Origin: a virus
Taxonomy: Duplodnaviria; Caudoviricetes
Strand: one strand, 5' to 3'
IMG/VR virus record: IMGVR_UViG_3300007352_000015
DNA: 53,893 nucleotides
Of this stretch, positions 1,251-53,893 are shown in pieces. Numbering within the stretch: the first letter of the stretch is position 1; every line of letters begins with the position of its first letter. The translations under genes and the position numbers were made by a program. The notes beneath the pieces are model-generated. The model did not search any database and had not been told where the DNA came from. It saw only the letters and a program-made list of their open reading frames with translations.

Positions 1251-2075
1251 ATGAGAAAACACATTAGAAAGAGTAATAAATATATCAAGAAAGATATAGA
1301 TAATAATATAAATAATATTATACCTGATAGTAATATAGATATGAATATAAAAGATATAGATATAAAGAATAAAGAAGATAATAATAAAGATAGTAAAGAT
1401 ATAAAAAAGAAAGATAATAAAGATATAAATACAAGTGTAATAAATATACCTGTATTAGATATTAGTATAAATAAATATATGTCTATAGGCACTCCCCTTA
1501 AAAATCCATTCCACGAAAGATTCTGTCAGCTATATTCCCGTAATCTAAACGCTACCACAAGTTATTTGCAATCCATAAAAGACGTAACGCCCGATAATGT
1601 AATAACTTACGATACGGCAAGAACCAATGGAAGCCGCTTGCTCACATATGCCGATATTCGGACACGCTTATCAGAAATTACAGACCACACCGCGCAAAAC
1701 CTTGATATAAGCCGAACAGATATACTTGAAGGAATTCAGAACGAGGTTAATCTTGATCCGGCGGATGTTTTCAATTGGACTGGTGAAGCTCTCGAATTAA
1801 AAAGTTTAAAAAATATACCGCTACAGGTTCGACAAACTATCAAGTCGATTAAAGAAAATAAGGACGGCAAAATCGAAGTTACTTTTTACGATAGGCAACG
1901 GGCGCGGGAGCAATTGATGAAATATCTTGGCATGCTGACGGATAAAGTTGACATAAACGTAACTCACGAATTGGGTAACGCACTTGCCGCCGCACATGCC
2001 AGAGTCGTGAAACGTTCTAACCGTGAAATCGATGCACCTGGAGCGATAGAGGCAGATTTTACAGAGATTGACTAA
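1251..2075 (+). CDS. terS: Terminase small subunit; true start may be ATG 1479 after a low-complexity N/D/K/I stretch
   Basis: HERFCQLY..NLNATTSY..TARTNGSRLLT HTH signature; C-terminal IKSIK...KIEVTFYDRQRAREQLMKYLGM typical of TerS. Confidence 0.85.
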   Translation: MRKHIRKSNKYIKKDIDNNINNIIPDSNIDMNIKDIDIKNKEDNNKDSKDIKKKDNKDINTSVINIPVLDISINKYMSIGTPLKNPFHERFCQLYSRNLNATTSYLQSIKDVTPDNVITYDTARTNGSRLLTYADIRTRLSEITDHTAQNLDISRTDILEGIQNEVNLDPADVFNWTGEALELKSLKNIPLQVRQTIKSIKENKDGKIEVTFYDRQRAREQLMKYLGMLTDKVDINVTHELGNALAAAHARVVKRSNREIDAPGAIEADFTEID

Positions 2076-7180: not shown

Positions 7181-7569
7181 TGCGTACTGTAGCTCAATCT
7201 GTTTCCGACATGCAAGATAAGATCGCCGCTCTCGAAACCGAGAATGCTAAGTTACGTAAGCATGGCGGTTGGGAACACGGCCAGTATAACGAATGGATAC
7301 AGTTGACGGGCGACAACGAGGCGTCAACCCTCGGTGGCCCTTCGATTCGCGTCCACAAGCGCCACGAGTTTTCTGATGATTTGGTGGACTTCCTGCTTAT
7401 TCCACTGGACGACCAAAAGACCTATCGAACAGAGAGTGGACAGATAAAATCGATGCTTAACAAGCACGAACTCTACTTCTTTTATCAGGCGGCTATGCAC
7501 CACCTCACGGCGCGTTATTGTCGCATCTGTAAATCGATAGACAAAGCCAACGCGACCAAGGAGGCATAA
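7180..7569 (+). CDS. Hypothetical protein with N-terminal coiled coil
   Basis: GGAGGAG RBS, TAATG overlap; start at 7180. Confidence 0.6.
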   Translation: MRTVAQSVSDMQDKIAALETENAKLRKHGGWEHGQYNEWIQLTGDNEASTLGGPSIRVHKRHEFSDDLVDFLLIPLDDQKTYRTESGQIKSMLNKHELYFFYQAAMHHLTARYCRICKSIDKANATKEA

Positions 7570-7952
7570 TGGAACCGGTCAAGACTAAACGCAGTTGGGT
7601 AGTGGAGTTCGGGCCAGCGATCATCATCATCGGCTGCGCCCTGATAGCCGTCGCCTGCATGGTCTGCGATCCGCAGCCGCTACCGGCGCAGTACGTGGTG
7701 CCGCATCCCGACAACATGATGTATGAGCCACCGCCTAACTATGATTTAATAGACTCATCCGTCTCTTTTCTGCCACCGCCGGAGTACAAGGTTATTGCCG
7801 ACAGCCTGTTCGTGCTGGAAAATCCTGTCAACCTTTACGTATGGGAAGGCCAGTCGTACAGCAAGCGCTGGTGTTTCGTCGGCATCGTTATCCCCGCCGA
7901 TACTGTTATCGTACGCTACGAAGGAGAGACTACAGAAAGGTACTGGAGGTAA
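7569..7952 (+). CDS. Membrane-anchored hypothetical protein
   Basis: One N-terminal TM helix, Pro-rich linker, DSS/DSL/DTV motifs. Confidence 0.6.
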   Translation: MEPVKTKRSWVVEFGPAIIIIGCALIAVACMVCDPQPLPAQYVVPHPDNMMYEPPPNYDLIDSSVSFLPPPEYKVIADSLFVLENPVNLYVWEGQSYSKRWCFVGIVIPADTVIVRYEGETTERYWR

Positions 7953-7954
7953 AA

Positions 7955-8170
7955 ATGGCTTACGACGTAGATGAACTTCAATGCAGATTTACTTACCACG
8001 CCCCGAAAGAGGGCCAGCCAGAGATGTATGAATCAATACGCAAGAACGCGCTTCATCTGGCGTATATTTTGGTGGAGCATTGCCCCGAAAGCCGGGAATT
8101 GTCGCTGGCATTGACGCATCTTGAGGAGGCCGTTTTCTGGGCAAACGCCGCCATCGCAAGGCGCGGTTGA
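7955..8170 (+). CDS. Acb2/Tad1-type helical hairpin protein (candidate immune-signal sponge)
   Basis: RFTYHAPKEGQ..YESIR...CPESRELSLALTHLEEAVFWANAAIAR, the family consensus as I recall it; GGAGG RBS. Confidence 0.7.
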   Translation: MAYDVDELQCRFTYHAPKEGQPEMYESIRKNALHLAYILVEHCPESRELSLALTHLEEAVFWANAAIARRG

Positions 8171-8177
8171 CACTTCC

Positions 8178-8206
8178 TTGCTTTTTATAATTATTATGGT
8201 TATTAT
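8178..8206 (+). promoter_or_regulatory. sigma70-type promoter, probably giving a leaderless mRNA
   Basis: TTGCTT-17 nt-TATTAT; ATG 8213 lies 7 nt downstream with no RBS. Confidence 0.55.
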
Positions 8207-8212
8207 TGTTGC

Positions 8213-8395
8213 ATGGAGAAAACGATGACCATCTACTGTCGTAAGTGCGGCCAGCCGGAGAGAGCGCTCAACCTGCATACCGGCGAACGCCATAACGTAA
8301 AACATGGCGATAACGTCAAGTCCATCCTGTGTTCCAACTGTATCCAACTGGCCTACCTGGAAAAAGATCGCAAGAAAAAGGAGGCGGCGGCATGA
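8213..8395 (+). CDS. Small zinc-ribbon protein
   Basis: CRKC...CSNC. Confidence 0.6.
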   Translation: MEKTMTIYCRKCGQPERALNLHTGERHNVKHGDNVKSILCSNCIQLAYLEKDRKKKEAAA

Positions 8396-8751
8396 ATCGC
8401 AAGGATATGCTCCAGTTGTGTATAGCCGCCCCACTGGCCGCGATAGGGATTAAGGCCGCCTTGGGACAAGCCCCGCCAACTGTTCCGCGTTACGAGATAT
8501 TTTGCGAACCAGCGTGCTATGGTGACGAGGAAACCGGCGTAGCTGTACGAGATGGAAATGCGATTATTGAAATTCACGTATTGCCTGACCGCTCCTTGCA
8601 TGATTCCGTAAAAAGGATTATGGCTATAGAAGATCGCTATCAGCCTTGTCGTGTACATGTTGAGAGGTACGGCATTGGGATGGCCTATCTCGACATGGCG
8701 CGAGACAACGGAAGGCAATGGTATGAAGTTGATCGCAGGGGGTGGATGTAA
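8392..8751 (+). CDS. Tat-like leader fused to a partial terminase-nuclease-like domain
   Basis: MNRKDMLQLCIAAPLAAIGIKA leader; body aligns by eye with the C-terminal domain of this window's TerL; AGGAGG RBS. Confidence 0.65.
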   Translation: MNRKDMLQLCIAAPLAAIGIKAALGQAPPTVPRYEIFCEPACYGDEETGVAVRDGNAIIEIHVLPDRSLHDSVKRIMAIEDRYQPCRVHVERYGIGMAYLDMARDNGRQWYEVDRRGWM

Positions 8752-9018
8752 ATGCCTTATAAACGAATGAACCGGAAGTCGTTTTTGGGCCTATGTATAG
8801 CCGCTCCGCTGGCCGCCATCGGCATTAAAGCGCTGCCGAAGAAGCCCCATCTAAACTTGGATGAGAAGACGGTGTGGGTGGATTGCAGGTGCGCCAAGGG
8901 CCGGGGTGATGGTACACCGTCCAATCCATACGCTACTATCGGAGAGGCCGTCGAATCCTTTGGGGGGCCAGCCACGGGAACTGTCGTTTTAACTGCCGAG
9001 GGACTTTATGCCTTATAA
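8752..9018 (+). CDS. Tat-like leader fused to a beta-helix N-cap (DUF1565-like) fragment
   Basis: MNRKSFLGLCIAAPLAAIGIKA leader; KTVWVD...GDGTPSNPYATIGEAV. Confidence 0.65.
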   Translation: MPYKRMNRKSFLGLCIAAPLAAIGIKALPKKPHLNLDEKTVWVDCRCAKGRGDGTPSNPYATIGEAVESFGGPATGTVVLTAEGLYAL

Positions 9019-9223
9019 GCGCCTATCTACTTACAGTCATAGGCTTACGCTTGTACTTGGCAGTCCGATACGCGGCCTGACGCATAGGCAGTGGAAGGAT
9101 TGCAGGGCTTGGATCGGTCGTCGCGCCGTTCCTCCGGCGACGAAGAAGGCGTGGCTGAACAACGCCATGCTGATGCACCGGCTGGCAGCGGTTGTATCGC
9201 CAAGAAAACACTACTGGTCGTAG
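9008..9223 (+). CDS. Small basic hypothetical protein
   Basis: GAGGG RBS; starts MPYKR like the preceding gene. Confidence 0.5.
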   Translation: MPYKRLSTYSHRLTLVLGSPIRGLTHRQWKDCRAWIGRRAVPPATKKAWLNNAMLMHRLAAVVSPRKHYWS

Positions 9224-9232
9224 ACCAATCCC

Positions 9233-9470
9233 CTCCCGATCCTTCGTGGTCGGGGGCGCGAGGGCGAGTCTCTAACGTACAGTGCGTTGGACAAAGGCAA
9301 CTCGCCCTCTGCTAACGGCGGAGCGAACATGGACGTGGACTTCGCCTAAAAAAATACAGCCGAACGTCCGTCGCCTCGTATCCGGTATGCCGCTATACAA
9401 ATCGATCTTTACCAGCGGAGAGCACGGGGCGGCTTGGGGCAAGACGCCGGATTACCCAAGCCACGTTCGT
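9233..9470 (+). ncRNA. Candidate structured RNA upstream of a tRNA-like element
   Basis: Stems 9233-9241/9248-9256, 9260-9269/9300-9309 (perfect 10 bp) and 9431-9438/9455-9462. Confidence 0.4.
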
Positions 9471-9496
9471 CCTAAAATAAAAGAACTGAAAACTTT

Positions 9497-9571
9497 GGAG
9501 CGGAGCGCGGTGCCAATGACCGACTGGTAAGGCGGCCCTGTTGGCCGGTTCGATTCCGGCCCGCTCCATCA
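9497..9571 (+). tRNA. Degenerate tRNA or tRNA-like element (Thr-GGT-like loop, ends in TCA)
   Basis: Perfect acceptor stem GGAGCGG/CCGCTCC and T arm GCCGG-TTCGATT-CCGGC at standard spacing; D and anticodon stems non-canonical. Confidence 0.55.
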
Positions 9572-9573
9572 AA

Positions 9574-9725
9574 ATCCGAAGCGGCGCGATAATTGTGGAC
9601 GCGCTTAGTCTGTTCGCCAGAGAGATCGCCCTCGGTTGGTACGTCCCATCCTGTAGTCCACATGCAGGGGGCAACGTGGTGTGCAGTGGCTTGAGCCAAC
9701 TGCCGGAAACCAGCCAGCTTCGGAT
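9574..9725 (+). ncRNA. Candidate ~150-nt structured RNA with kissing loops
   Basis: Closing helix ATCCGAAGC/GCTTCGGAT; loop TGTGGA (9594-9599) complementary to loop TCCACA (9657-9662). Confidence 0.5.
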
Positions 9726-9798
9726 ATTTTAAGAACCGACAGTTCGTACCAGTTTTCCGAGCGATGTAACTATATTTCTGCAAAAGGGGGATATAAAG

Positions 9799-9951
9799 AT
9801 GAACTTTGATTTATATCCAATCAAAGCTGAAGGCGCGTTGATGCCTACGCCCGGCGGGTGTGTTGAGAGTAAATTGTGGCGGAGCGGGGTTTTACTTAAA
9901 ATTAAACGAGCGATTTATGTGCTATTCCCAAGTCTCGATAAGGGATGGTAG
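9799..9951 (+). CDS. 50-aa protein resembling the N-terminus of the gp10-like tail hub
   Basis: AAGGGGG RBS; MNFDLYPIKAEGALMPTPG...GVLLKIKRAIYVLF. Confidence 0.55.
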   Translation: MNFDLYPIKAEGALMPTPGGCVESKLWRSGVLLKIKRAIYVLFPSLDKGW

Positions 9952-9956
9952 TTGGA

Positions 9957-10100
9957 ATGGAATGTCCGATCTGCAATAATATTTGGGAACCGATAGTCGT
10001 CCTGAACGCTGGCGAGATTCTGCCGGAAACGGTGACATGCCCGGCCTGCGGTTGTGAAGTCGAAGTTGATGACGATTGGGAGATGGTGGAGGAAATATGA
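9957..10100 (+). CDS. 47-aa acidic zinc-ribbon protein
   Basis: MECPIC...TCPACGCEVEVDDDW. Confidence 0.6.
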   Translation: MECPICNNIWEPIVVLNAGEILPETVTCPACGCEVEVDDDWEMVEEI

Positions 10101-10264
10101 AACTCAAATCCTACAAGTCGTTCCACGACCAGTTTAAGGAGTGTCGCCGGGATGGGGTCAACACCTATCAGGGTGAGCTTAAGCCGTTGCATTGCACCAA
10201 GTTCAATGCGGACTGCAAGGGTTCGACATGCAAGCATGAAAGGATAATCTACGAAGATGATTAA
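10097..10264 (+). CDS. Small Cys-rich hypothetical protein
   Basis: GGAGG RBS, ATGA overlap. Confidence 0.5.
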   Translation: MKLKSYKSFHDQFKECRRDGVNTYQGELKPLHCTKFNADCKGSTCKHERIIYEDD

Positions 10265-10577
10265 GCTGCCAAAGTCCTATATGACCTGCGGCGTTCCACT
10301 TAAGATAGTTCGCGTTGAAGGCTGTGGCGGCGAGTTTGAGACCGACCTTAATAGCGGGACGATAGGACTTGGCCGGGAAGCGCAGGAGGCCGACTTGGTG
10401 TTGGCCTTCATGCATGAAATAGCGGAAGCTTCGGCATCCGAGATGGGTGTGCGCTACACAAAGACGATAGGGGCAAAGCAGTATCTTTTTTGCTGCGACC
10501 ATGAGCAGTTTTCGTTGTGGATACAGGAAGTGGCCCGTGGTGTTTACGATCTGCTTCAAGCCAACCGGAGCAAGTGA
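10257..10577 (+). CDS. Small zincin-like protein (HExxE)
   Basis: IKLPKS...GTIGLG...FMHEIAEA pattern of phage metallopeptidase-like proteins. Confidence 0.5.
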   Translation: MIKLPKSYMTCGVPLKIVRVEGCGGEFETDLNSGTIGLGREAQEADLVLAFMHEIAEASASEMGVRYTKTIGAKQYLFCCDHEQFSLWIQEVARGVYDLLQANRSK

Positions 10578-14452: not shown

Positions 14453-17023
14453 ATGAAGAAACTCGTCGTACTCGTTCTGCTGCTGTTCGCCTGTCCGTTG
14501 CAGGCGCAGGTCACAAGCGCCACTGTAGCAATACTTGATTCCGCAGCCACGCGCCGTTCTGTAAAGTATGCCGATGCTTCATACGCGGTCGCACGAAACG
14601 CTACGGTTGGCGAAGCGACGGCAACCGAGTTCGCGGTTTTTAATGCGGACACGACCGTCACCGATTATACCGTGTCTCGCGGCTTCCTGATGCTTGATTT
14701 GACGGATTTGACGCCAGCCGTCAGGGTTGACTCGGCCCGGTTGTTCATGTACTTATTGGGCGATCCAATAGATTTCCAGGACAGCGACTCCACTCACGTT
14801 GTCGAGGGCACTTACACCGGGGGTTATGAAGCTTCAGATACTATTAGCACCGCATGGTACAGTCAATTCACTGGATGGACGGATTCATCGGCGTATGGCG
14901 TCGTTAATTACACAGAACCATTTGTTCAGGATACAAGTGATAATGGCTGGCAGAGCCGGTTATTCACGCAGGCCGGACTCGATACGCTCCTCAGTAAAAT
15001 CGGGGCAGATACAATCAGGATGGCCCTGCTGAATGGTCAAGACATTGCCAACTACACTCCGACTTCGGCGACGCAGGGGTTAACCAGTTGGCGTTCCACG
15101 CCCGCAAACTCGCTGCCATACCTTACTATCTATTATCGATCCGCCGCTTATGATACTGTCGTTTCCGCATCGAGCGGCGGACTGCTCCTGAACGCCGATA
15201 CCACGTTAGATTACCAAGTTCACGATTCAACCCACGCGTCCAGCGTCTCTACGACAACCATGAATATCGGATACCGAACGGGCGGCAATGGCAAGTATCA
15301 TGTCAACCGGACGGCCCTGACGTTTGCAACCGATCAACTGACATGGGCCGACTCCATTGTTTCTGCATCATTATTTATATATCCTACTATTGTGGTCGAT
15401 TCGCTGGATATCGTTGTCGGAGAAGGGACGTTCAGCGGAGCAATTGCCACCGACTGGTTCAACGACTTCACCGGATGGGTGGATGGCGCACCCTACACGG
15501 CGATGAATGTGTTTGTTGACAGCACCAGAATAGCAAGTACGGATACGTCGAGTTGGGTTGAATTGCCACTTACTACGGCTGGCAAGGCGGCCTTGCTGGC
15601 GGCGATGGCTAATGACAGCCTACGGATGATGATCTTGTCATCTATGGACGTCAACCGGTCGGACTTTCCGACCGACTCCAGCCGGTGGGGTGTCATTTCA
15701 GCTACCACATACAAGCCGTATCTTATGATAGACTACACCACGCTGGCCCCGCCAGCGGTTATAACCAACAAGGATGTGGACACCACGTTCTTTGTCGGTG
15801 GCAACGTCTATGCCACGCTTGGCGCGAGAATAGACTCTGTAGGGGATGGTCTGGACAGCGTAGGTTTCCGCTACTATCTGGTAGGCGATGCTGGCAATCC
15901 GCTCTATACCGTTTCCGATTCGAGCGGTGCCACATGGGTTTCCGATTCCTTTTTCCTCAACACATCCAGCGCCGATACCCTGACAATTGATACATTTTAT
16001 GTCGTAACCGCATTTGCTGTCAACAGAGCGAATCGAATTTACAGTACGGTCAACGATACCATTAGTACGGAATACGCTATCTCCACTCTCTGGGAAACGA
16101 TATCGACACTACCGGAGGACAGTATCATCGCCAATCCAGTGCGGGCGATCTGGCCGGATGCGATTGACCGCCTATGGTTCGGCACCGCTATGGGACTTTA
16201 CCGGCAAGACAGCGATACGACGATAGCGCGGTATGTATATGATGATTCATCCTTCGCGCAGAAAAGTAGAAACAACATACTCGCTGGCATCGGGTTGCCA
16301 GACAGTACGATATTCACCGGTTCCCCGGTCGGCCTTACCCGCCACGATACACTCTCTTTCACTTCCGACTCGTTAATTACCGAAGGCATTATCCCTGATA
16401 GCGTTGTATGGACACTGGTACCCGACAGTGGCGGCGTATCTCAGGCGTGGGTCGCCAACGGCATGGGCTACGTCTATATCTTCGGCGATACCGTGGAAAC
16501 CGTATTCGATTCCGACAGCGGACTGATCGGCGACAGGGTATACGATGTGGCCTTTGACTCCACCAGTTCGGCGTGGCTGGCGACCGACAACGGCGTGAGC
16601 CGCATCATAGGCGGCTACTGGATAGACTATACTACTACCAATAGTTGGATTAACGGCAACGTGAACTATGCGATAGCGATTTGCGGCGTTGATTCCAGCA
16701 TCTGGTTCGGTGGCGATGATGGCCTTGTCCAATTCGATAACGACACTACATGGACGGATTGGAGCGATAGCCTTGTTAACCGCAGGGTGAAGGATATCGT
16801 CTACGATAATGTCAACCTTGTTTTGTGGATCGCCACGGATTCGGGGCTTGTGGCGTATCAGCCAGACACGCCCAATGGCGTCAGTTGGCGCAGGTACTAT
16901 CCGGCGAGCACGAGTGACAGTCTGCCGCAGTACCGGATACTCAGCGTCTATCCAGACACAGCAGGCCGCGTCTGGGTCGGGCATTCTGCGGGTGTAACGA
17001 GATTGACGGAGACCTTTAACTAA
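14453..17023 (+). CDS. Sec-exported 856-aa protein: two repeated beta-sandwich domains, an FnIII-like domain and a C-terminal beta-propeller
   Basis: Signal peptide MKKLVVLVLLLFACPLQA-Q; internal repeat R..L....L......SA.LF.Y...EGT...W...FTGW.D; propeller blades LWFGT..GL, AWLATDNGV, IWFGGDDGL, LWIATDSGL. Confidence 0.75.
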   Translation: MKKLVVLVLLLFACPLQAQVTSATVAILDSAATRRSVKYADASYAVARNATVGEATATEFAVFNADTTVTDYTVSRGFLMLDLTDLTPAVRVDSARLFMYLLGDPIDFQDSDSTHVVEGTYTGGYEASDTISTAWYSQFTGWTDSSAYGVVNYTEPFVQDTSDNGWQSRLFTQAGLDTLLSKIGADTIRMALLNGQDIANYTPTSATQGLTSWRSTPANSLPYLTIYYRSAAYDTVVSASSGGLLLNADTTLDYQVHDSTHASSVSTTTMNIGYRTGGNGKYHVNRTALTFATDQLTWADSIVSASLFIYPTIVVDSLDIVVGEGTFSGAIATDWFNDFTGWVDGAPYTAMNVFVDSTRIASTDTSSWVELPLTTAGKAALLAAMANDSLRMMILSSMDVNRSDFPTDSSRWGVISATTYKPYLMIDYTTLAPPAVITNKDVDTTFFVGGNVYATLGARIDSVGDGLDSVGFRYYLVGDAGNPLYTVSDSSGATWVSDSFFLNTSSADTLTIDTFYVVTAFAVNRANRIYSTVNDTISTEYAISTLWETISTLPEDSIIANPVRAIWPDAIDRLWFGTAMGLYRQDSDTTIARYVYDDSSFAQKSRNNILAGIGLPDSTIFTGSPVGLTRHDTLSFTSDSLITEGIIPDSVVWTLVPDSGGVSQAWVANGMGYVYIFGDTVETVFDSDSGLIGDRVYDVAFDSTSSAWLATDNGVSRIIGGYWIDYTTTNSWINGNVNYAIAICGVDSSIWFGGDDGLVQFDNDTTWTDWSDSLVNRRVKDIVYDNVNLVLWIATDSGLVAYQPDTPNGVSWRRYYPASTSDSLPQYRILSVYPDTAGRVWVGHSAGVTRLTETFN

Positions 17024-18525
17024 TGGCCTTCAAAGCTACAGCCGATGACGTGAAGCTCGGCGAGTATATGATGCAATTTTTTTATGATCCATTGGGTCAT
17101 GTTATGGCATCGTATCCTTGGGGGCAGTCGGGCACTCCACTTGAAAACGAAGAGGGGCCAGATACATGGCAATCCAAGTTTCTCGTAGACCTTGGCAGGC
17201 ATATAGAGGAGGTGGCGGATGGCAAGCGCTCAAATGTCAAAATGGCCGTGGCGTCGGGCTGGGGCATCGGAAAAACTTGTCTTGTGGCGTGGCTGATTAG
17301 ATGGTTCTGCGACACTCGCCCATATCCGCAGTTAGTAGTAACCGCAAACACTGAAAAGCAGTTAAGTACGAAGACTTGGCGTGAACTTGCCAAGTGGAAT
17401 AATATGGCGCTTAACGGCCACTTGTGGGACTGGACTGCAACCTCGTATCGTCTCAAGGGCAACGAGGACACGTGGTACGCTTCTGCAATTCCGTGGTCGG
17501 AACATAACGCGCAGGCGTTCGCCGGTACGCACGAAAAATACGTTATGATGATTTTTGATGAAGGCTCGACAATCCATGATAACATCTGGAACATTGGTAA
17601 CGGCGTAATGACTACGAAGGGGGCCGTTTGGCTTGCCTTCGGGAACCCGACACAAAACACCGGCCAATTTCATGCGATTTTCCATAAAGAGCGGGACATT
17701 TGGGATACTCGCTCAATAGATTCGCGTACCGCGAAAGTCACAAACAAAGAGGAACTTAATCGGCGTGTTGCCCTTTATGGGGAGGATGATGATGTTATCC
17801 GAGTGTCTATCCTCGGCAAATTCCCGAAGCGTTCCAGTATGCAATTTATTTCCAGTGCACTTGTTGAAGGAGCGCTGGAACGTGAGCATAAACTCGATTC
17901 TTATCGTCACGCGGCTAAAGTTATCGCAGTGGATGTGGCACGGTTTGGGGATGACTCTACTGTATTTTGTTGCCGCAAGGGCGTCAAGCTATTGTGGATG
18001 AAGGGGTTCCACGGGATAGACACAATGCAGACCGCGCAGTTGCTCGCCAAGTATGAGGATGAAGAGCGCGATGTTGATGCAATTTTTGTCGATGTTGTCG
18101 GCATCGGCGCTGGTGTGGTTGATCGGGGCAGGCAATTGGGCCGTCGGTGGATGGAGCACAATGGTGCGCACGCCTCGTCTGATGGCAAATGGTCGAACAA
18201 GCGTGCGCAGTGCTGGGGAGAAATGCGCGATTGGCTGGAAGTGGGGGATATGACGACCCTGTCTCAAAAAGACAAAGATGTAATGACCGACGACCTGACC
18301 GGCCCAATGTATGGATTTGATCGGGTTGAAAGACTCATCCTTGAGAAAAAAGAAGATATGAAAAAACGGGATTTAGCCTCGCCGGACTGGGGTGACGCCT
18401 TAGCTATGACCTTCACTCAGAAAGTTATCCCGCAACACATGCTGGAAGATGAGTACGACTACGCCGAGGCCGAGCGGCAGCGTATGCGGGCTGACAGAAC
18501 CAGAAGCATGATAACCGGATATTGA
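17023..18525 (+). CDS. terL: Terminase large subunit
   Basis: Walker A SGWGIGKT, Walker B MIFDEG, FGNP coupling motif, nuclease VDVARFGDD and SPDWGDALA. Confidence 0.95.
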   Translation: MAFKATADDVKLGEYMMQFFYDPLGHVMASYPWGQSGTPLENEEGPDTWQSKFLVDLGRHIEEVADGKRSNVKMAVASGWGIGKTCLVAWLIRWFCDTRPYPQLVVTANTEKQLSTKTWRELAKWNNMALNGHLWDWTATSYRLKGNEDTWYASAIPWSEHNAQAFAGTHEKYVMMIFDEGSTIHDNIWNIGNGVMTTKGAVWLAFGNPTQNTGQFHAIFHKERDIWDTRSIDSRTAKVTNKEELNRRVALYGEDDDVIRVSILGKFPKRSSMQFISSALVEGALEREHKLDSYRHAAKVIAVDVARFGDDSTVFCCRKGVKLLWMKGFHGIDTMQTAQLLAKYEDEERDVDAIFVDVVGIGAGVVDRGRQLGRRWMEHNGAHASSDGKWSNKRAQCWGEMRDWLEVGDMTTLSQKDKDVMTDDLTGPMYGFDRVERLILEKKEDMKKRDLASPDWGDALAMTFTQKVIPQHMLEDEYDYAEAERQRMRADRTRSMITGY

Positions 18526-20564: not shown

Positions 20565-20920
20565 TAGTCAAGCAAAGCGAGTTCTCTGCGGGAGAACGAT
20601 TAGAGAAGGGCGCGGTTGTATATGAGCGAGATGGGAAGTTGTATCACGTTCCCGCTTCTATTGGGGTGGCGCTAAAGACGGTAGAAGCCGGAGAATTACC
20701 CGTTTGGATCAGGCCAGAAAATGTTATTGAGCACGGCCCCTGTCCCGCTGGCGAGAAGATATGGAGTGGCGATATCCTTTGTTGGCGAGATTCTCAAGTA
20801 TGCCCATCGCCAACATTCGCTGGAATAATACACGACGATGTTGATGAAGGCGATTATCCTACGATGATATTATTCACAATGGATGTGTTCGATGAATGTT
20901 TAGCCCGGAGCTTCGCATGA
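20561..20920 (+). CDS. Small protein with two AGE-x-x-x-G-(A/D) repeats (capsid cement/DUF2190-like)
   Basis: AGERLEKGAVVY...IGVA and AGEKIWSGDILCW...FAGII. Confidence 0.45.
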   Translation: MIVKQSEFSAGERLEKGAVVYERDGKLYHVPASIGVALKTVEAGELPVWIRPENVIEHGPCPAGEKIWSGDILCWRDSQVCPSPTFAGIIHDDVDEGDYPTMILFTMDVFDECLARSFA

Positions 20921-21150
20921 TTATAGTCCAAGGTATCCGCAGGGATGAGCTTCAGCAGTGGAAGGGCAGCCAGATGACACAGGCCATCTTCAAGGCCATA
21001 GCCGACAAGCTGGACATGAAGCGCAGGGATTCAGGGCGTGGCGTCGGTCTCGATGTTGAGAACGCCGACAAGACGCAGGCGAACTCGTTCAGGGCATACG
21101 GCTATTGCGAGGCGCTGGATGAGGTGTTGAACCTGACCACGGGCGACTAA
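20917..21150 (+). CDS. Small helical protein of the portal-adjacent type
   Basis: ATGA overlap; ELQQWKGSQMTQAIF...GYCEALDEVL. Confidence 0.6.
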   Translation: MIIVQGIRRDELQQWKGSQMTQAIFKAIADKLDMKRRDSGRGVGLDVENADKTQANSFRAYGYCEALDEVLNLTTGD

Positions 21151-24835: not shown

Positions 24836-25759
24836 ATGTCTGTACCGATTACCCGTGGTGATCTTGCGAAGATGCTCTGGCCGGGATTGAACAAGATTTT
24901 CGGCCAGGAGTACGCGGAACACCCTGTTATTTACGAACGTCTGTTTAAGAAGTTCACTTCAACCAAGGCATACGAGGAAGAAGTCGGTCTGACCGGCCTC
25001 GGACTCGTGCCGATCAAGACCGAAGGCTCTCCCGTGCTGATGGATAGCATGGCTCAGGGCTACATCAAGCGCTATACGCACGTTACCTACGCTTCCGGCT
25101 TCAAGGTTACTATGGAAGCGGCTGAGGACAACCAGTACCAGCTTACGCAGCAGATGATGAGAAGTCCGCGTGCGCTGGCCTACTCGATCCGTCAGACCAA
25201 GGAAACGATTGCGGCCAACATCTTCAACCGTGGGTTTACCTCGACGTATCCGGGTGCCGACAGCCTGGAACTGTTCTCGCTGCTCCATACCAATGGCGGC
25301 GGCAACGGTGGAACCTACCAGAACGAACTGACGACTGCGGCTGACCTGAGCGAAGCGGCTCTGGAACAGGCTTCCATTGACATGGGTGCCTGGACGAACG
25401 ACCGTGGCCTGAAGATCAGCGCCCAGATTACCGCACTGGTAGTCCCTGTCGCGCTGAAGTTCGAGGCGTACCGGATCACCAAGAGCGTCCTGCGTCCGGG
25501 CACGGCGAACAATGACCCCAACGCGCTGCATGCAATGGGCACCGTGCCGGAGATCATCGTATCGCCGTATCTGACCGACAGTGATGCGTGGTTCCTTCTG
25601 ACGGACGTGCCCGATGGCCTGAAGTATTTTGAGCGCAAGGGCGACACGTTTGAAATCGACAACGAGTTCCTGACGATGGACGCCATCTACACCGGTCACT
25701 TCCGTTGCAGCTTTGGCTGGACTGACCCGAAAGGTGCTTTCGGATCAAGTGGGGCATAG
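24836..25759 (+). CDS. Major capsid protein (HK97 fold, Mu gpT-like family)
   Basis: LWPGLN..FG.EY, YEEEVGLTG.G...KTEG, LVVPVALKF.A, SPYLTDSDAWFL, FGWTDP.G.FGS.GA. Confidence 0.9.
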   Translation: MSVPITRGDLAKMLWPGLNKIFGQEYAEHPVIYERLFKKFTSTKAYEEEVGLTGLGLVPIKTEGSPVLMDSMAQGYIKRYTHVTYASGFKVTMEAAEDNQYQLTQQMMRSPRALAYSIRQTKETIAANIFNRGFTSTYPGADSLELFSLLHTNGGGNGGTYQNELTTAADLSEAALEQASIDMGAWTNDRGLKISAQITALVVPVALKFEAYRITKSVLRPGTANNDPNALHAMGTVPEIIVSPYLTDSDAWFLLTDVPDGLKYFERKGDTFEIDNEFLTMDAIYTGHFRCSFGWTDPKGAFGSSGA

Positions 25760-25871: not shown

Positions 25872-26792
25872 ATGCAAATGGTATACTCAAATTTCCCTAA
25901 AGGGTTCAGGGATGGCGTGACCATTCTTGACCTTCCTCACCAGCCGCTGGTCAACCCGGCCAATAAGGTGCTCTGGGTTGATTCCGGGGCTGACCGTAAC
26001 GGCGACGGTTCGTATCATGTACCGTATGCCACTGTGGCTGCCGCGATCTCTGCGGCCAGTGCCGGCGATACGATTATGATTGCCGCCGGACACACTGAGA
26101 ACCTTTCCAGCGCAACCATCTTTGCCGTAGCGACCGCCAGCCTGACGTTTATCGGCATGGGCGAGGGGCAGCGTATTCCGAAGTTTACAACTACGGCTAC
26201 CGCTGGCGCTCTGATGGTCACGGCAGCCAACTGCGTGTTCCAGAACCTGCGGTTCGTAGCTGGTATCGACAACACCGTGCAGGCTATCGATCTGTCGGCT
26301 GATGCCGATGGGACTATTATCCGTCGGTGTATCTTCGAGGACACGGCCAGCAACAAAGAGTTCCTGAAACACATTGACATCGCCACCACCATCGCCAACG
26401 TCATTATCGAGGACTGCGAGTTCATCTGTACCGCAGGCGGCGGCATGACGAGTTCGATCTTCTTTACAGGGTCGAGTTCCGATGTTGTGATCCGCAATAA
26501 CTTCTTCTGGGTGGATGCCTCGGCCTCAGTCATCGATCACCTGACGGGCATTGCAACGAACATCCTGATCCATGACAACCGGATGGTCAACCTTGACGCT
26601 ACCACCGTTCTGGGCCTCGGCATTAAATCCGACAGCACCAGCACTGGACAGGTATTCGATAACTATATCTTCTGTAGTGAAGCGGCTTCCGCGATCTTCG
26701 CGGTGACGAACGATTTCTTCGTCTGCGAGAACTACAGCACCAATAACATCAACGCCAGTGGCGTATTGCAGCCTGCTGCCGATACCATCTAA
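25872..26792 (+). CDS. Right-handed beta-helix virion protein, paralog 1
   Basis: WVDS..RNGDGSY..PYATV..AI..GDTIMIAAGHTE cap, then N-ladder beta-helix repeats. Confidence 0.75.
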   Translation: MQMVYSNFPKGFRDGVTILDLPHQPLVNPANKVLWVDSGADRNGDGSYHVPYATVAAAISAASAGDTIMIAAGHTENLSSATIFAVATASLTFIGMGEGQRIPKFTTTATAGALMVTAANCVFQNLRFVAGIDNTVQAIDLSADADGTIIRRCIFEDTASNKEFLKHIDIATTIANVIIEDCEFICTAGGGMTSSIFFTGSSSDVVIRNNFFWVDASASVIDHLTGIATNILIHDNRMVNLDATTVLGLGIKSDSTSTGQVFDNYIFCSEAASAIFAVTNDFFVCENYSTNNINASGVLQPAADTI

Positions 26793-26818: not shown

Positions 26819-27736
26819 ATGAGTAAGCTTTTAGCAGCTTCCAGCGCGGGTGCCGTCATTCAGGGTATCCCGACTTCACAGATTCCGAACTCGAATAAAA
26901 AGACCATCTGGGTGGATGCTAATTTCACTCAGGGTCGGCGCGATGGCTCACGGCTCGGCCCGTATGCCACTATTGACGCGGCTATTGCCAAGGCTGCGAC
27001 CGGGGATACTATCCTGATCGCTGCGGGCCATACCGAGAATATGTCTACCGCCGCCATCTTCGCCGTTGACGTTGCGGGATTGACTATCCGTGGCTTGGGC
27101 GAAGGTGAACGCAGGCCGACATTCACCTCGACTGCCGCCGCTGGCGCGTGCATGATTACTGTCGCCAATACGGTGCTGGAGAACCTCAAGTTCGTGGCGA
27201 ACTTCGCTACCGGCACCACGCAGGCCATTGATCTCGCCGCCGCCGCCGATGGCACGATCATCCGTAATTGCGCCTTCCGTGATACCAGTGCGGCCAATGA
27301 GTTCCTGATCCATATCGACATCGCCACTACGATTGCGAACGTGGTGATCGAAGGCTGCGATTTCACGACCGCCGCCGGTTCGATGACAAGTTCGATTTTC
27401 TTCACCGGCACCAGCAGCAACGTTGTGATTCGCAACAACCGTTGGCAGGTGGATGCTTCGGCTTCGGTTATTGACCATCTGACCGACAACCCGTCGCTGA
27501 TCCGTATCCATAACAACCGGATCGTGAACATTGATGTTACCGCTGGCCTCGTTATCGGTCTCAAGTCCGATGATGCCGGTACTGGCATTATCTATGACAA
27601 TTATATCCAGTCGCCGTCCACTGGCGCTGCGGTTCTGGCGGCTACGAACGATTTTCATGTAGCGCAGAACTTCTGTAGCAACGACATTAATACCAGTGGC
27701 GTTCTCAACCCGGCTGCTGATACTTACGCGAGTTAA
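26819..27736 (+). CDS. Right-handed beta-helix virion protein, paralog 2
   Basis: Collinear with paralog 1, e.g. HIDIATTIANV, MTSSIFFTG, VDASASVIDHLT. Confidence 0.75.
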   Translation: MSKLLAASSAGAVIQGIPTSQIPNSNKKTIWVDANFTQGRRDGSRLGPYATIDAAIAKAATGDTILIAAGHTENMSTAAIFAVDVAGLTIRGLGEGERRPTFTSTAAAGACMITVANTVLENLKFVANFATGTTQAIDLAAAADGTIIRNCAFRDTSAANEFLIHIDIATTIANVVIEGCDFTTAAGSMTSSIFFTGTSSNVVIRNNRWQVDASASVIDHLTDNPSLIRIHNNRIVNIDVTAGLVIGLKSDDAGTGIIYDNYIQSPSTGAAVLAATNDFHVAQNFCSNDINTSGVLNPAADTYAS

Positions 27737-27804: not shown

Positions 27805-29055
27805 ATGAGGCCAGTTAATGTAACAATCGGCCTGTCTCCGGCGGATGCGGATGGGATATGCGCGTCGCAGACTACTGCTGCGGCAGCCGAACTCGATCTC
27901 AGTGGCGGGGCATTAAGCGCCGCCACGGGTATCGCTCGATTGGCTACAGCCGCTCAGATCGTTATTACCTGCGCCGCCGATGAGACTGGCAACACTTTCA
28001 TCGTTACCGGCGTTAATGGTAGCGGCCTGCCCGTCGAGGAACGCATTACCGGCGTAAGTGCCTCTGCGGCTACGAGCGTCCAGAGTTACCGCGAGGTGTC
28101 CCGCATCTATATTACGGGAGCCACTTCCGGCAACGTCAGCGTTGGCGTCTCCGGCTCTACGCAGTCGATTTCGGTCAACCAGACAGCCACCGCCGCAAGG
28201 GCGTTGACGATCACCGGCATAATGAGTTACGAAGCCAAGATGACCGGCTACGCCGACAACGGCGCACCCCTGCCTGTTCTGATTTATTCCGCTGGTGATG
28301 ATACGGGTGATACGTTTACGATCTACGGCCAGGATGGCAACGGCGTGGATATCTCCGAAGCCGTTACCGGGGCCAACGCCGATACAGCCACCAGCACCAA
28401 GACATTCAGGAAGGTCTACGCCATCTACGACAGTGGAGCATCTACCGGAGCGGTATACGCCGGGTGGGCTTCCGATGTGGATGGTATCGCCAAGAGCCAG
28501 ACGATGGCCGGGGCGGGCTACCTTGTAATGAACGGTGCCAAGTGTACCACTCAGCCGCGCCACGTATCCATCTATTCCAGTGCCGATGAATCAGCCTTCA
28601 CGTTCACCGTAGTCGGCACCGACCGTACCGGCGCTCGCTTGACTGAGGACATCACCGGCCCGACCGCTGCGGCTACCGCTAAAGGCAATAAGAACTTCGC
28701 TACCGTTCAGGCTGTGTATATCAACGGCAACGCGGCTGGCAATATCACCGTCGGCTCGGCTGACGAGTGTGAAAGCAAGCCGATCATCGTTGACTACTTC
28801 ACCAGCGGCATGTCGGTTGCCATTCTCCATTCCACCAGCGACAGCCAGACGCATCGCTTCCTGGTTACGCTGGATAACCTGCTGTCGGGCGAACGCAATG
28901 AGGACACCGCCCGCTGGCTGGAGGAGACCGGCACTGCAACAGCGAATGAAACATTTTCGTCTACATCCGTGGTCAAGGCGGTTCGCCTTGAGATCACCGG
29001 CCACGTTCGCGGGGCCGTTGACATGCTGATGAACTTCCCTGGGTATAACGATTAA
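27805..29055 (+). CDS. Virion structural protein with three tandem beta-rich repeats
   Basis: Three copies of I.S..D....FT..G.D..G....E.ITG......S.K.F..V..IY..GA..G.V.VG. Confidence 0.7.
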   Translation: MRPVNVTIGLSPADADGICASQTTAAAAELDLSGGALSAATGIARLATAAQIVITCAADETGNTFIVTGVNGSGLPVEERITGVSASAATSVQSYREVSRIYITGATSGNVSVGVSGSTQSISVNQTATAARALTITGIMSYEAKMTGYADNGAPLPVLIYSAGDDTGDTFTIYGQDGNGVDISEAVTGANADTATSTKTFRKVYAIYDSGASTGAVYAGWASDVDGIAKSQTMAGAGYLVMNGAKCTTQPRHVSIYSSADESAFTFTVVGTDRTGARLTEDITGPTAAATAKGNKNFATVQAVYINGNAAGNITVGSADECESKPIIVDYFTSGMSVAILHSTSDSQTHRFLVTLDNLLSGERNEDTARWLEETGTATANETFSSTSVVKAVRLEITGHVRGAVDMLMNFPGYND

Positions 29056-53490: not shown

Positions 53491-53893
53491 TCATTGTGGG
53501 GTTGCATCTTCTGCCTCGATAATCTTGCCATTTTTTAGGGTGTAATAGACATCCTCTTTGATTGTTTTCCCGTCTACGGGAACCGCTCTCATCCCCTTGA
53601 TTTGCCACTCGCCATCAGCATTGCGTTCGCGCTCGGTAAGCACAATCCAGTCGGTAAGCCGCCCCCGCGCCCTACCGTCAACGCCCGTGACTAACGCCAC
53701 CGAATGTTTACCCTCGGCACTCGCCGCGCCACTGTCCCCGGTAGCACTCGCCGCGCCCCTGTACCCGGTAGCACTCGCCGCGCCACTGTCCCCGGTAGCA
53801 CTCGCCGCGCCCCTGTCCCCGGTAGCACTCGCCGCGCCCCTGTCCCCGGTAGCACTCGCCGCGCCACTGTCCCCGGTAGCACTCGCCGCGCCC
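53491..53893 (-). CDS. Partial protein with AASATG(D/Y)(S/R)G repeats (DUF7666-type phage protein)
   Basis: Frame stays open past the track's start to the window end; C-terminus VDGKTIKEDVYYTLKNG. Confidence 0.8.
   Translation of the reverse strand, partial: GAASATGDSGAASATGDRGAASATGDRGAASATGDSGAASATGYRGAASATGDSGAASAEGKHSVALVTGVDGRARGRLTDWIVLTERERNADGEWQIKGMRAVPVDGKTIKEDVYYTLKNGKIIEAEDATPQ
53717..53893. repeat. 27-bp coding tandem repeat, six full copies plus a partial, truncated by the window end
   Basis: GCACTCGCCGCGCC(A/C)CTGT(C/A)CCCGGTA units. Confidence 0.95.

Follow-up and report, generated by a model that had tools for sequence, protein, structure and literature searches.

Envelope-directed phage proteins often decide superinfection and host range, and Sp and Imm of phage T4 are small envelope-targeted proteins of this kind that bring about superinfection exclusion. 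Tailed-phage genomes are also marked by mosaic junctions and by gene fragments that arise from illegitimate recombination at gene boundaries. ORF B, the small phage gene described here, can be compared with both. Like Sp and Imm, it is a small early or accessory gene with an N-terminal signal or anchor, although the analogy is functional only and implies no relation in sequence or fold. Like the fragments at mosaic junctions, its DNA is bracketed by a short direct repeat at a gene start within a variable accessory region missing from the closest relative; unlike them, the piece holds a complete, selected signal peptide. A further comparison is provided by WceF of Pantoea stewartii, which, according to PMC7949094, carries a Tat signal on a tailspike-like β-helix glycan enzyme. 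ORF B resembles such proteins in having a twin-arginine-type signal followed directly by a right-handed parallel β-helix cap. Its Atlas feature matches were WcaM and TAT_signal, with scores <0.9 that make them leads only. In contrast to WceF and WcaM, ORF B has RK in place of RR and matches no Tat or β-helix model; it is phage-encoded and most closely related to the phage's own β-helix proteins, which have no signal. Moreover, it spans 88 aa and stops after the first rung, compared to the 736 aa of WceF. The neighboring gene, ORF A, is similar to the nuclease domain of the terminase large subunit (TerL) of phage G20c (5m1f/5tge) in its RNase-H-like core, but it differs from TerL in having no ATPase domain, only the first ~85 residues of the nuclease domain, an export-type leader and varying acidic positions. 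A full-text search, which leaves absence unproven, brought up no publication describing phage proteins with Tat signals like these.

The window, by which we mean the whole 53.9-kb stretch of DNA analyzed, is the entire contig C7 of the metagenome-assembled genome G000 (1.8 Mb) and represents a tailed-phage genome. The phage carries the recombination genes RecT and YqaJ and three tRNAs. ORF A and ORF B sit in its early accessory region among a run of small plus-strand genes (Table 1), and positions 7500-10500 had no match by blastn among phage GenBank sequences. Two genes upstream of the leader-bearing pair is a gene for an Acb2/Tad1-hairpin protein (PF24729, E 2.1e-21; phrog_1454, E 8.8e-28), a candidate sponge for cyclic-nucleotide defense signals. 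The closest phage that we found, G363, is 75.6 kb long and 90% complete by CheckV estimate. On the evidence set out below, we interpret ORF B as a chimeric remnant of a signal-bearing third β-helix paralogue, a reading in which we place about even confidence.

Table 1. Features of the phage genome discussed in the text, with positions counted in the window.
Feature	Position	Strand	Description
Small terminase	1251-2072		
Acb2/Tad1-hairpin small protein	7841-8167		likely start at internal MAYDV... Met
ORF A	8392-8751	+	119 aa; leader 8392-8457 and RNase-H-like core
ORF B	8752-9018	+	88 aa; MPYKR, leader and N-terminal β-helix fragment
14-nt direct repeat, left copy	8752-8765	+	supplies ORF B ATG and MPYK(R)
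Leader copy in ORF B (MNRK...GIKA)	8767-8832	+	Tat-family type, RK for RR
ORF B cargo	8833-9007	+	homologue of residues ~17-70 of full-length β-helix paralogues
14-nt direct repeat, right copy	9008-9021	+	native ORF 9008 start; holds ORF B stop TAA 9016-9018
ORF 9008	9008-9223	+	71 aa, basic; separate conserved small gene
Probable terminase large subunit	17023-18525	+	just upstream of portal gene (phrog_1216)
Major capsid protein	24836-25756		
Second full-length β-helix paralogue	25872-26792	+	306 aa; 58% identical to 26819-27736
β-helix protein matched by ORF B cargo	26819-27736	+	305 aa, full length

The initial annotation had proposed that ORF B repeats the leader of ORF A, and the two leaders indeed correspond: 19/22 positions are identical between residues 6-27 of ORF B and residues 1-22 of ORF A (BLASTP E 1e-10). 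Among the 22 codons compared, 8 are identical and 11 differ by synonymous changes only (13 base changes); the other 3, at positions 5, 6 and 8, carry non-synonymous changes. The 13-residue block CIAAPLAAIGIKA is identical in the two proteins, with 7 synonymous and no non-synonymous codon differences. Because the differences are mostly synonymous, it is the peptide and not the DNA that was conserved. This divergence proves past selection only and not present function; the claim that it reflects selection on the peptide thus stands for the history of the leader and does not carry over to the 88-aa product of today. A six-frame scan of G000 for leader words found nothing leader-like besides the two copies in the window. 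In IMG/VR, a DNA pattern for IAAPLAAI occurs at at least 80 loci; among the matches listed, it forms an N-terminal leader in L080 alone, and a stricter pattern (R[RK] plus two leucines) had a single match (1/1), again L080. The only match of the stricter pattern in the species genomes (1/1) was an internal membrane helix and was discarded.

Judged by its sequence features, the leader belongs to the Tat-type signal family. Both leaders in the window have a weakly hydrophobic h-region of the Tat type, a basic residue in the c-region and small residues at -1/-3, and a Pro-rich linker comes after their G-I-K-A motif. The hydropathy of the core, scored over 13 residues, is 2.07-2.38 for the window leaders (2.38 in ORF B) and 1.9-2.1 for relatives with RR. 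In 6/7 leaders compared, a small residue at -1 and an aliphatic residue at -3 precede the Pro-rich linker in the manner of a signal-peptidase site, and the leader is probably a cleavable signal. A lipoprotein reading of the leader cysteine was ruled out, as the -1 residue is Leu and relatives have no Cys. The consecutive arginines of S-R-R-x-F-L-K are absent from the window leaders, which read N-R-K-D-M-L-Q and N-R-K-S-F-L-G. RR or RRR is present in P0008, P0009-P0012 and the second leader gene of phage L006 (described below), and relatives of ORF A start with MNRREFLK..., MRRRGLLK... or MNRRGLLK.... Two of the RR relatives, P0009 (18.2 bits) and P0011 (17.1 bits), pass the cut-off of TIGR01409 (16.7 bits), whereas ORF A and ORF B had no match to the Tat models TIGR01409/PF10518 at E up to 10 (ncbifam) and up to 5 (pfam). 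The earlier wording, Tat-like with RK, was therefore a fair one. Lysine in place of the Tat arginines is "poorly tolerated" according to a review (PMC7317946), and so the RK leaders may be slow Tat signals, Sec signals or anchors; it is likely that such a leader is poorly routed by Tat, or routed by Sec instead. G000, linked to the phage as its host by binning only, is 95.5% complete (71 contigs) and yielded no TatC (PF00902). The gene was found in 64/121 genomes of the order, including 1/2 other genomes of the genus.

The homology of ORF B to β-helix proteins begins directly after the leader (ALPKKPHLNLDEK versus DLPHQPLVNPANK), and the leader takes the place of the first ~15-20 residues of the full-length paralogues. 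As the initial annotation had noted, the cargo corresponds to the N-terminal part of the 305-aa protein encoded at 26819-27736, with 27/69 residues identical over ORF B (BLASTP E 1e-12); by tblastn within the window, ORF B detected this gene at E 1.25e-10 and the second paralogue, 25872-26792, at E 2.4e-5. It had no match to the β-helix models PF07602/PF13229. An AF2 model of the 26819-27736 product (pLDDT 70.2, pTM 0.76) is a right-handed parallel β-helix of ~25 strands, and Foldseek matched it to pectin methylesterase (2ntb, E 2.7e-5), alginate lyases and the HK620 tailspike. Against Pfam, DUF1565 and NosD both stayed under the cut-off, and with the β-helix/DUF1565 models the score was 16.1 bits versus a cut-off of 20.3. 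Measured on this model, the ORF B cargo comprises the pre-cap linker, the cap strand, the cap helix and the first rung only: it ends at about residue 70-74, past strand 64-67, and lacks the stacked helical rungs. The fold of the 26819-27736 product also matches LH3, the hexon-interlacing capsid protein of snake adenovirus (5g5n, E 2.2e-3), and this match together with the adjoining capsid gene makes a capsid-decoration role possible beside an enzymatic one. The initial annotation had called this protein a capsid protein; the analysis establishes only its β-helix fold and its position after the major capsid gene. G363 likewise carries both β-helix paralogues after its capsid gene.

To place the cargo within this family, we aligned ORF B with four full-length proteins, two from the window and two from G363, over 43-44 aligned residues. 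Identity was 48% and 47% to the two proteins of the 26819-27736 clade and 35% to each of the two in the other clade. Between the two clades identity is 47-53%, and between orthologues it is 72%. ORF B is thus about as far from 26819-27736 (48%, 44 residues) as from its G363 orthologue (47%), and this distance, close to that between the clades, indicates a third old paralogue and not a piece of the resident gene. The proposal that the cargo is a fragment of the phage's own capsid protein, and hence a self-epitope, is not supported on this point. Of the 15 positions invariant across the four full-length proteins, ORF B nevertheless keeps 11, consistent with a truncation that came late compared with the divergence. 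Downstream of ORF B, tblastn with both paralogues at E up to 10 found no continuation of the β-helix in any frame. No full-length leader-plus-β-helix gene was found anywhere we searched, and the parent gene is for this reason hypothetical.

The ends of the piece coincide with a repeat. The 14-nt sequence ATGCCTTATAARCG occurs at 8752 and at 9008, and these are its only 2 copies in the window at ≤2 mismatches. The 242 nt between the copies are exactly the leader and the β-helix fragment, and β-helix homology stops 2-4 codons short of the right copy. The argument for a junction rests on this placement; the repeat alone is not statistically compelling. Its occurrence is within chance (14/100 shuffles gave ≥2 matches), and the surrounding 4-kb stretch is rich in imperfect 13-17-nt repeats, which form 30 families. 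A homologue of ORF 9008 lies at 20736-20966 in G363 (tblastn E 1.7e-7, 36% over 61 aa) as a leaderless, free-standing gene. MPYKRLS at the start of ORF 9008 aligns with MMLRKLS in this homologue, which indicates that the right copy of the repeat belongs natively to ORF 9008. The shared MPYKR start had been taken as a trace of cassette duplication. The 14-nt repeat behind it is real, but ORF 9008 is no duplicated cassette: it has no leader, has its own homologue in G363 and shows no similarity to ORF B past the 14 nt (without them the comparison scored 22 versus 17.7 +/- 2.3 for shuffles, 20/300 of which reached 22). A Shine-Dalgarno-like GAGGG at 8998, 5 nt before the ORF 9008 ATG, lies inside ORF B and is made by its A-E-G codons (GCC GAG GGA), where the family has invariant A-A-G. 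We also considered a fusion of the two frames by programmed +1 frameshifting at their overlap. ORF 9008 lies in the +1 frame and overlaps ORF B by 11 nt, as such a fusion would demand, but we saw neither a slippery motif nor a stimulatory structure, ORF 9008 comes with an ATG and a GAGGG ribosome site of its own, and its G363 homologue stands free, which together leave this reading barely credible.

ORF B has several properties of a translated gene. Its frame is open, its start directly adjoins the stop codon of ORF A (TAA 8749-8751), and a ribosome-site-like AGGGGG lies 11 nt upstream. Its codon-usage score is 0.199 per codon, the 5th percentile of windows from real genes; the references were 0.37 +/- 0.10 for real genes and -0.55 +/- 0.16 for off-frame windows, with an off-frame 95th percentile of -0.30. 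These properties fit a gene that is still selected, and to that extent they argue against a remnant; however, an open frame, a ribosome site, coupling to ORF A and such codon usage can likewise be expected if a piece of a real gene was captured recently. That the region is a relic and is not translated at all is improbable. The singleton status of ORF B and a codon score near the bottom of the range for real genes would suit an untranslated relic, but ORF B would have inherited the AGGGGG site and adjoins the stop of ORF A, a gene with a strong AGGAGG ribosome site, and we saw no sign of a terminator between the two genes.

Searches for relatives returned little. At 48-154 aa, a protein search of 5.8 billion clusters found ORF B itself alone. 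At 155-2000 aa, a cluster search found none, which is weak evidence because that search was word-based. Peptide patterns found no relative in IMG/VR, and 401 genomes of the phylum gave weak matches only (E 1e-3 or worse). L179 proved to be an ordinary host Tat leader and was rejected, and L181 (genome G500) was left out of the relatives. ORF B, ORF A and ORF 9008 had no match in Pfam, PHROGs or NCBIfam. Short ORF A-like or ORF B-like genes numbered 0 in 80 terminase-related loci (930 kb). Both ORF A and ORF B are absent from G363 as assembled, although both full-length β-helix paralogues are present; for ORF B this absence is not proven because G363 is 90% complete. The ESM Atlas model of ORF B has a pLDDT of 0.43. 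No RNA run was among the sequencing runs listed for the stretch; two runs cover small shares of it (0.08 and 0.04), and their gaps in coverage carry no information. A 217-nt contig from another sample (depth 2.6) spans 8795-9011 with 3 base changes, all non-synonymous. In ORF B they change a family-invariant alanine (A66D) and a proline (P73L), and there are no synonymous changes.

The ORF A cargo is homologous to the N-terminal half of the nuclease domain of the terminase large subunit. A profile of the ORF A family matched the TerL nuclease 5tge in the PDB (E 2.8e-5) and the phage's own terminase at 17023-18525 (E 9.3e-13), and hhalign aligned ORF A with residues 296-381 of the latter (probability 95.7%, E 8.5e-9; 22% identity). 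In an AF2 model (pLDDT 77.4), residues 33-119 fold as b1-b2-b3-a1-b4-a2-b5, with the leader (1-29) below 50. The top Foldseek match was 5m1f (rmsd 2.6 A over 86 columns, TMq 0.60), and the Avs3-terminase complex 8dgc was among the fold matches. ORF A holds ~85 of the ~190 residues of the nuclease domain, and two acidic positions vary across the family (E/Y/D/D and E/K/D/N in a 4-sequence alignment). Because these positions are not conserved, ORF A would be a binding module rather than an enzyme. The family numbers 7 proteins by profile search of the 5.8 billion clusters; phmmer with ORF A against 1.84 billion representatives gave 7 matches at E up to 0.001, 4 of them credible, and P0004, P0006 and P0007 were judged to be repeat-protein noise. 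Compared with P0008/P0012, the ORF A leader is identical at 13-14/22 positions and the cargo at 23-24/84. In the 80 related loci, the profile matched 79 long ORFs, the expected terminases. Besides G000, none of the 363 genomes of the order yielded a family member; a weak match in G066 was rejected, as it lies in a 451-aa frame, and P0005 was not found in the species genomes. At 973-1281 of contig C57, G000 has a second terminase-like ORF (508 aa; ORF A profile E 1.3e-12), which points to another phage or prophage fragment in that genome. We regard the ORF A family as more notable than ORF B itself: an export leader on a catalytically degenerate half of a TerL nuclease, linked to a second leader gene and present on two unrelated-looking backbones, has no described function.

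Leader-bearing gene pairs are found in other phages. In the IMG/VR phage L006/L080, an ORF A-like gene lies between a DNA polymerase gene and a clamp-loader-like gene, and in L006 the gene immediately after it, the second leader gene, joins a similar RR leader to an unrelated cargo of 130 residues. L189 and L190, a variant 76-77% identical to L006, have both leader genes with three small genes between them. L190 1788-2222 is identical to L189 1941-2375 over 435 nt but for one TGG-to-TAG change, a nonsense mutation that truncates the ORF A-like gene of L190 to 84 aa. These pairs and the nonsense allele indicate that a linked leader-gene pair recurs and that its genes are dispensable. The recurrence of a second leader gene near the ORF A-like gene in this other lineage further indicates that ORF B occupies the position of a real gene. 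The leader is modular, as had been suggested, with at least three types of cargo: the terminase-nuclease-like domain, the cargo of the L006 second gene and the β-helix fragment. Downstream of the second leader gene (L006 4427-4712, L189 3475-3799) is a lipoprotein-like ORF (MRKS..LFVSGC), beside which lies a small ORF with one hydrophobic helix; from their sequences, these could be spanin, holin or exclusion genes.

These gene pairs bear on whether ORF B is a functional small envelope protein, with a leader that exports or anchors it and a ~61-residue part whose site of action would be the periplasm or the membrane; superinfection exclusion, with ORF A as partner or in parallel to it, is one example. 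We judge this unlikely. The linkage of leader-gene pairs in the L006 and L189 phages is consistent with such a role, as are purifying selection on the leader, the abutting stop of ORF A and start of ORF B with the translational coupling it implies, coding-like codon usage and a place in the early accessory region beside the Acb2/Tad1-hairpin gene; the putative lipoprotein-like and small membrane-protein-like ORFs in the L006 neighborhood would agree with it too. However, ORF B is a singleton of low fold confidence, its cargo ends within the first helix rung at a recombination junction, the second gene of L006 has an unrelated cargo, and the sole variant differs by two non-synonymous residue changes and no synonymous ones. 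Taken together with the mimic reading discussed below, a functional small envelope protein is a tentative possibility, still on the unlikely side.

In the remnant reading, the parent gene would once have encoded a third paralogue of the phage β-helix proteins with a Tat-family leader, probably an exported one, and its first ~240 nt would now adjoin the 5' end of ORF 9008, a small conserved gene. A rearrangement may have moved the 242-nt piece to this site or severed it from the rest of its gene, either by insertion with duplication of the 14 nt or by recombination at the gene boundary, in a phage that carries RecT and YqaJ genes. Through this event, ORF B would have inherited the ribosome site and ATG that formerly served ORF 9008. 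Since the remnant carries a complete, selected signal peptide, it is probably still made and targeted by its leader to the membrane or periplasm, but the ~61-residue mature part could not form a β-helix and would have no selected function of its own. Truncation at the first rung, a junction bracketed by repeats, singleton status and low fold confidence all support a remnant, as do the descent from a deep paralogue rather than from a copy of the phage's own gene, the non-synonymous variant contig (depth 2.6), the absence of ORF B from G363 as assembled and the precedent that WceF sets for such an architecture. The nonsense change in the ORF A-like gene of L190 adds that such accessory genes decay. 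Against a remnant stand the leader peptide, kept over 13 residues despite 7 synonymous changes, and the recurrence of a second leader gene at such a position in the other lineage. As a remnant, ORF B shows phage accessory regions making chimeric, signal-bearing mini-genes at gene boundaries.

The homology of both cargoes to proteins of the same phage, TerL and the β-helix protein, raises another reading of the leader, as a modular device that displays fragments of the phage's own late proteins (TerL nuclease, β-helix) as self-mimics or decoys, which would hinder rival phages or the host's sensors for these late proteins. TerL is a known trigger of Avs sensors, the Avs3-terminase complex 8dgc appears among the fold matches, and an anti-defense-type gene lies two genes upstream. 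In addition, the C-terminal extension of P0005 is weakly similar to a 416-aa virion protein of the window (tblastn E 0.11), but this resemblance is not significant (hhalign probability 6.9%). The cargoes are ancient relatives and not copies, with 22% identity to TerL and 48% to the β-helix core, and neither the L006 contig itself (best E 0.17) nor the window (E 0.54 against the 416-aa protein) contains a match to the cargo of the L006 second gene. An exported protein would also be unable to meet cytoplasmic sensors, and neither the closest phage, G363, nor any of the 80 terminase-related loci has such short genes. We therefore consider self-mimicry highly improbable. A broader proposal sees the leader as the hallmark of a rare class of accessory proteins in phages, with a Tat-family signal joined to pieces of morphogenesis proteins, whose products would act in the envelope or as tethered decoys beside an Acb2/Tad1-like gene. 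The leader would then be a swap point, better conserved than its cargo, and the targets would be rival phages or host defenses; this proposal strikes us as rather improbable. The remnant reading of ORF B remains the one that we prefer.

Several further observations concern the phage genomes. The 416-417-aa protein that follows the β-helix pair (window 27805-29055, L172 10967-12220) is 59% identical between the window phage and G363, whose sequence L172 represents, and seems to contain an internally repeated motif, F-T-V-x-G-x-D-x-x-G; the 416-aa protein at 27805-29055 had no family match. Between its capsid gene and first β-helix gene, G363 has a 282-aa ORF (L172 8146-8994) with Cys-rich and DHNH-type motifs, which by these motifs looks like a homing HNH endonuclease; the window lacks an equivalent of it. 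A non-coding gap separates ORF 9008 from the next genes, which start again near 9945, and includes the segment 9356-9738. Within this segment, a tRNA-like element at 9496-9571 has a perfect acceptor stem and T-arm; it scored 24.6 bits against the Rfam tmRNA model (cut-off 47) and was detected by ARAGORN with relaxed thresholds only, not with defaults. The whole of 9356-9738 (383 nt, including the tRNA-like element) is swapped for 35 other letters in a contig from another sample (run X2), indicating an indel or mobile insertion. Finally, a 27-nt tandem repeat (6.5 copies, 95% matching) at 53717-53892 reaches the contig end and may be the reason that the assembly stops there.
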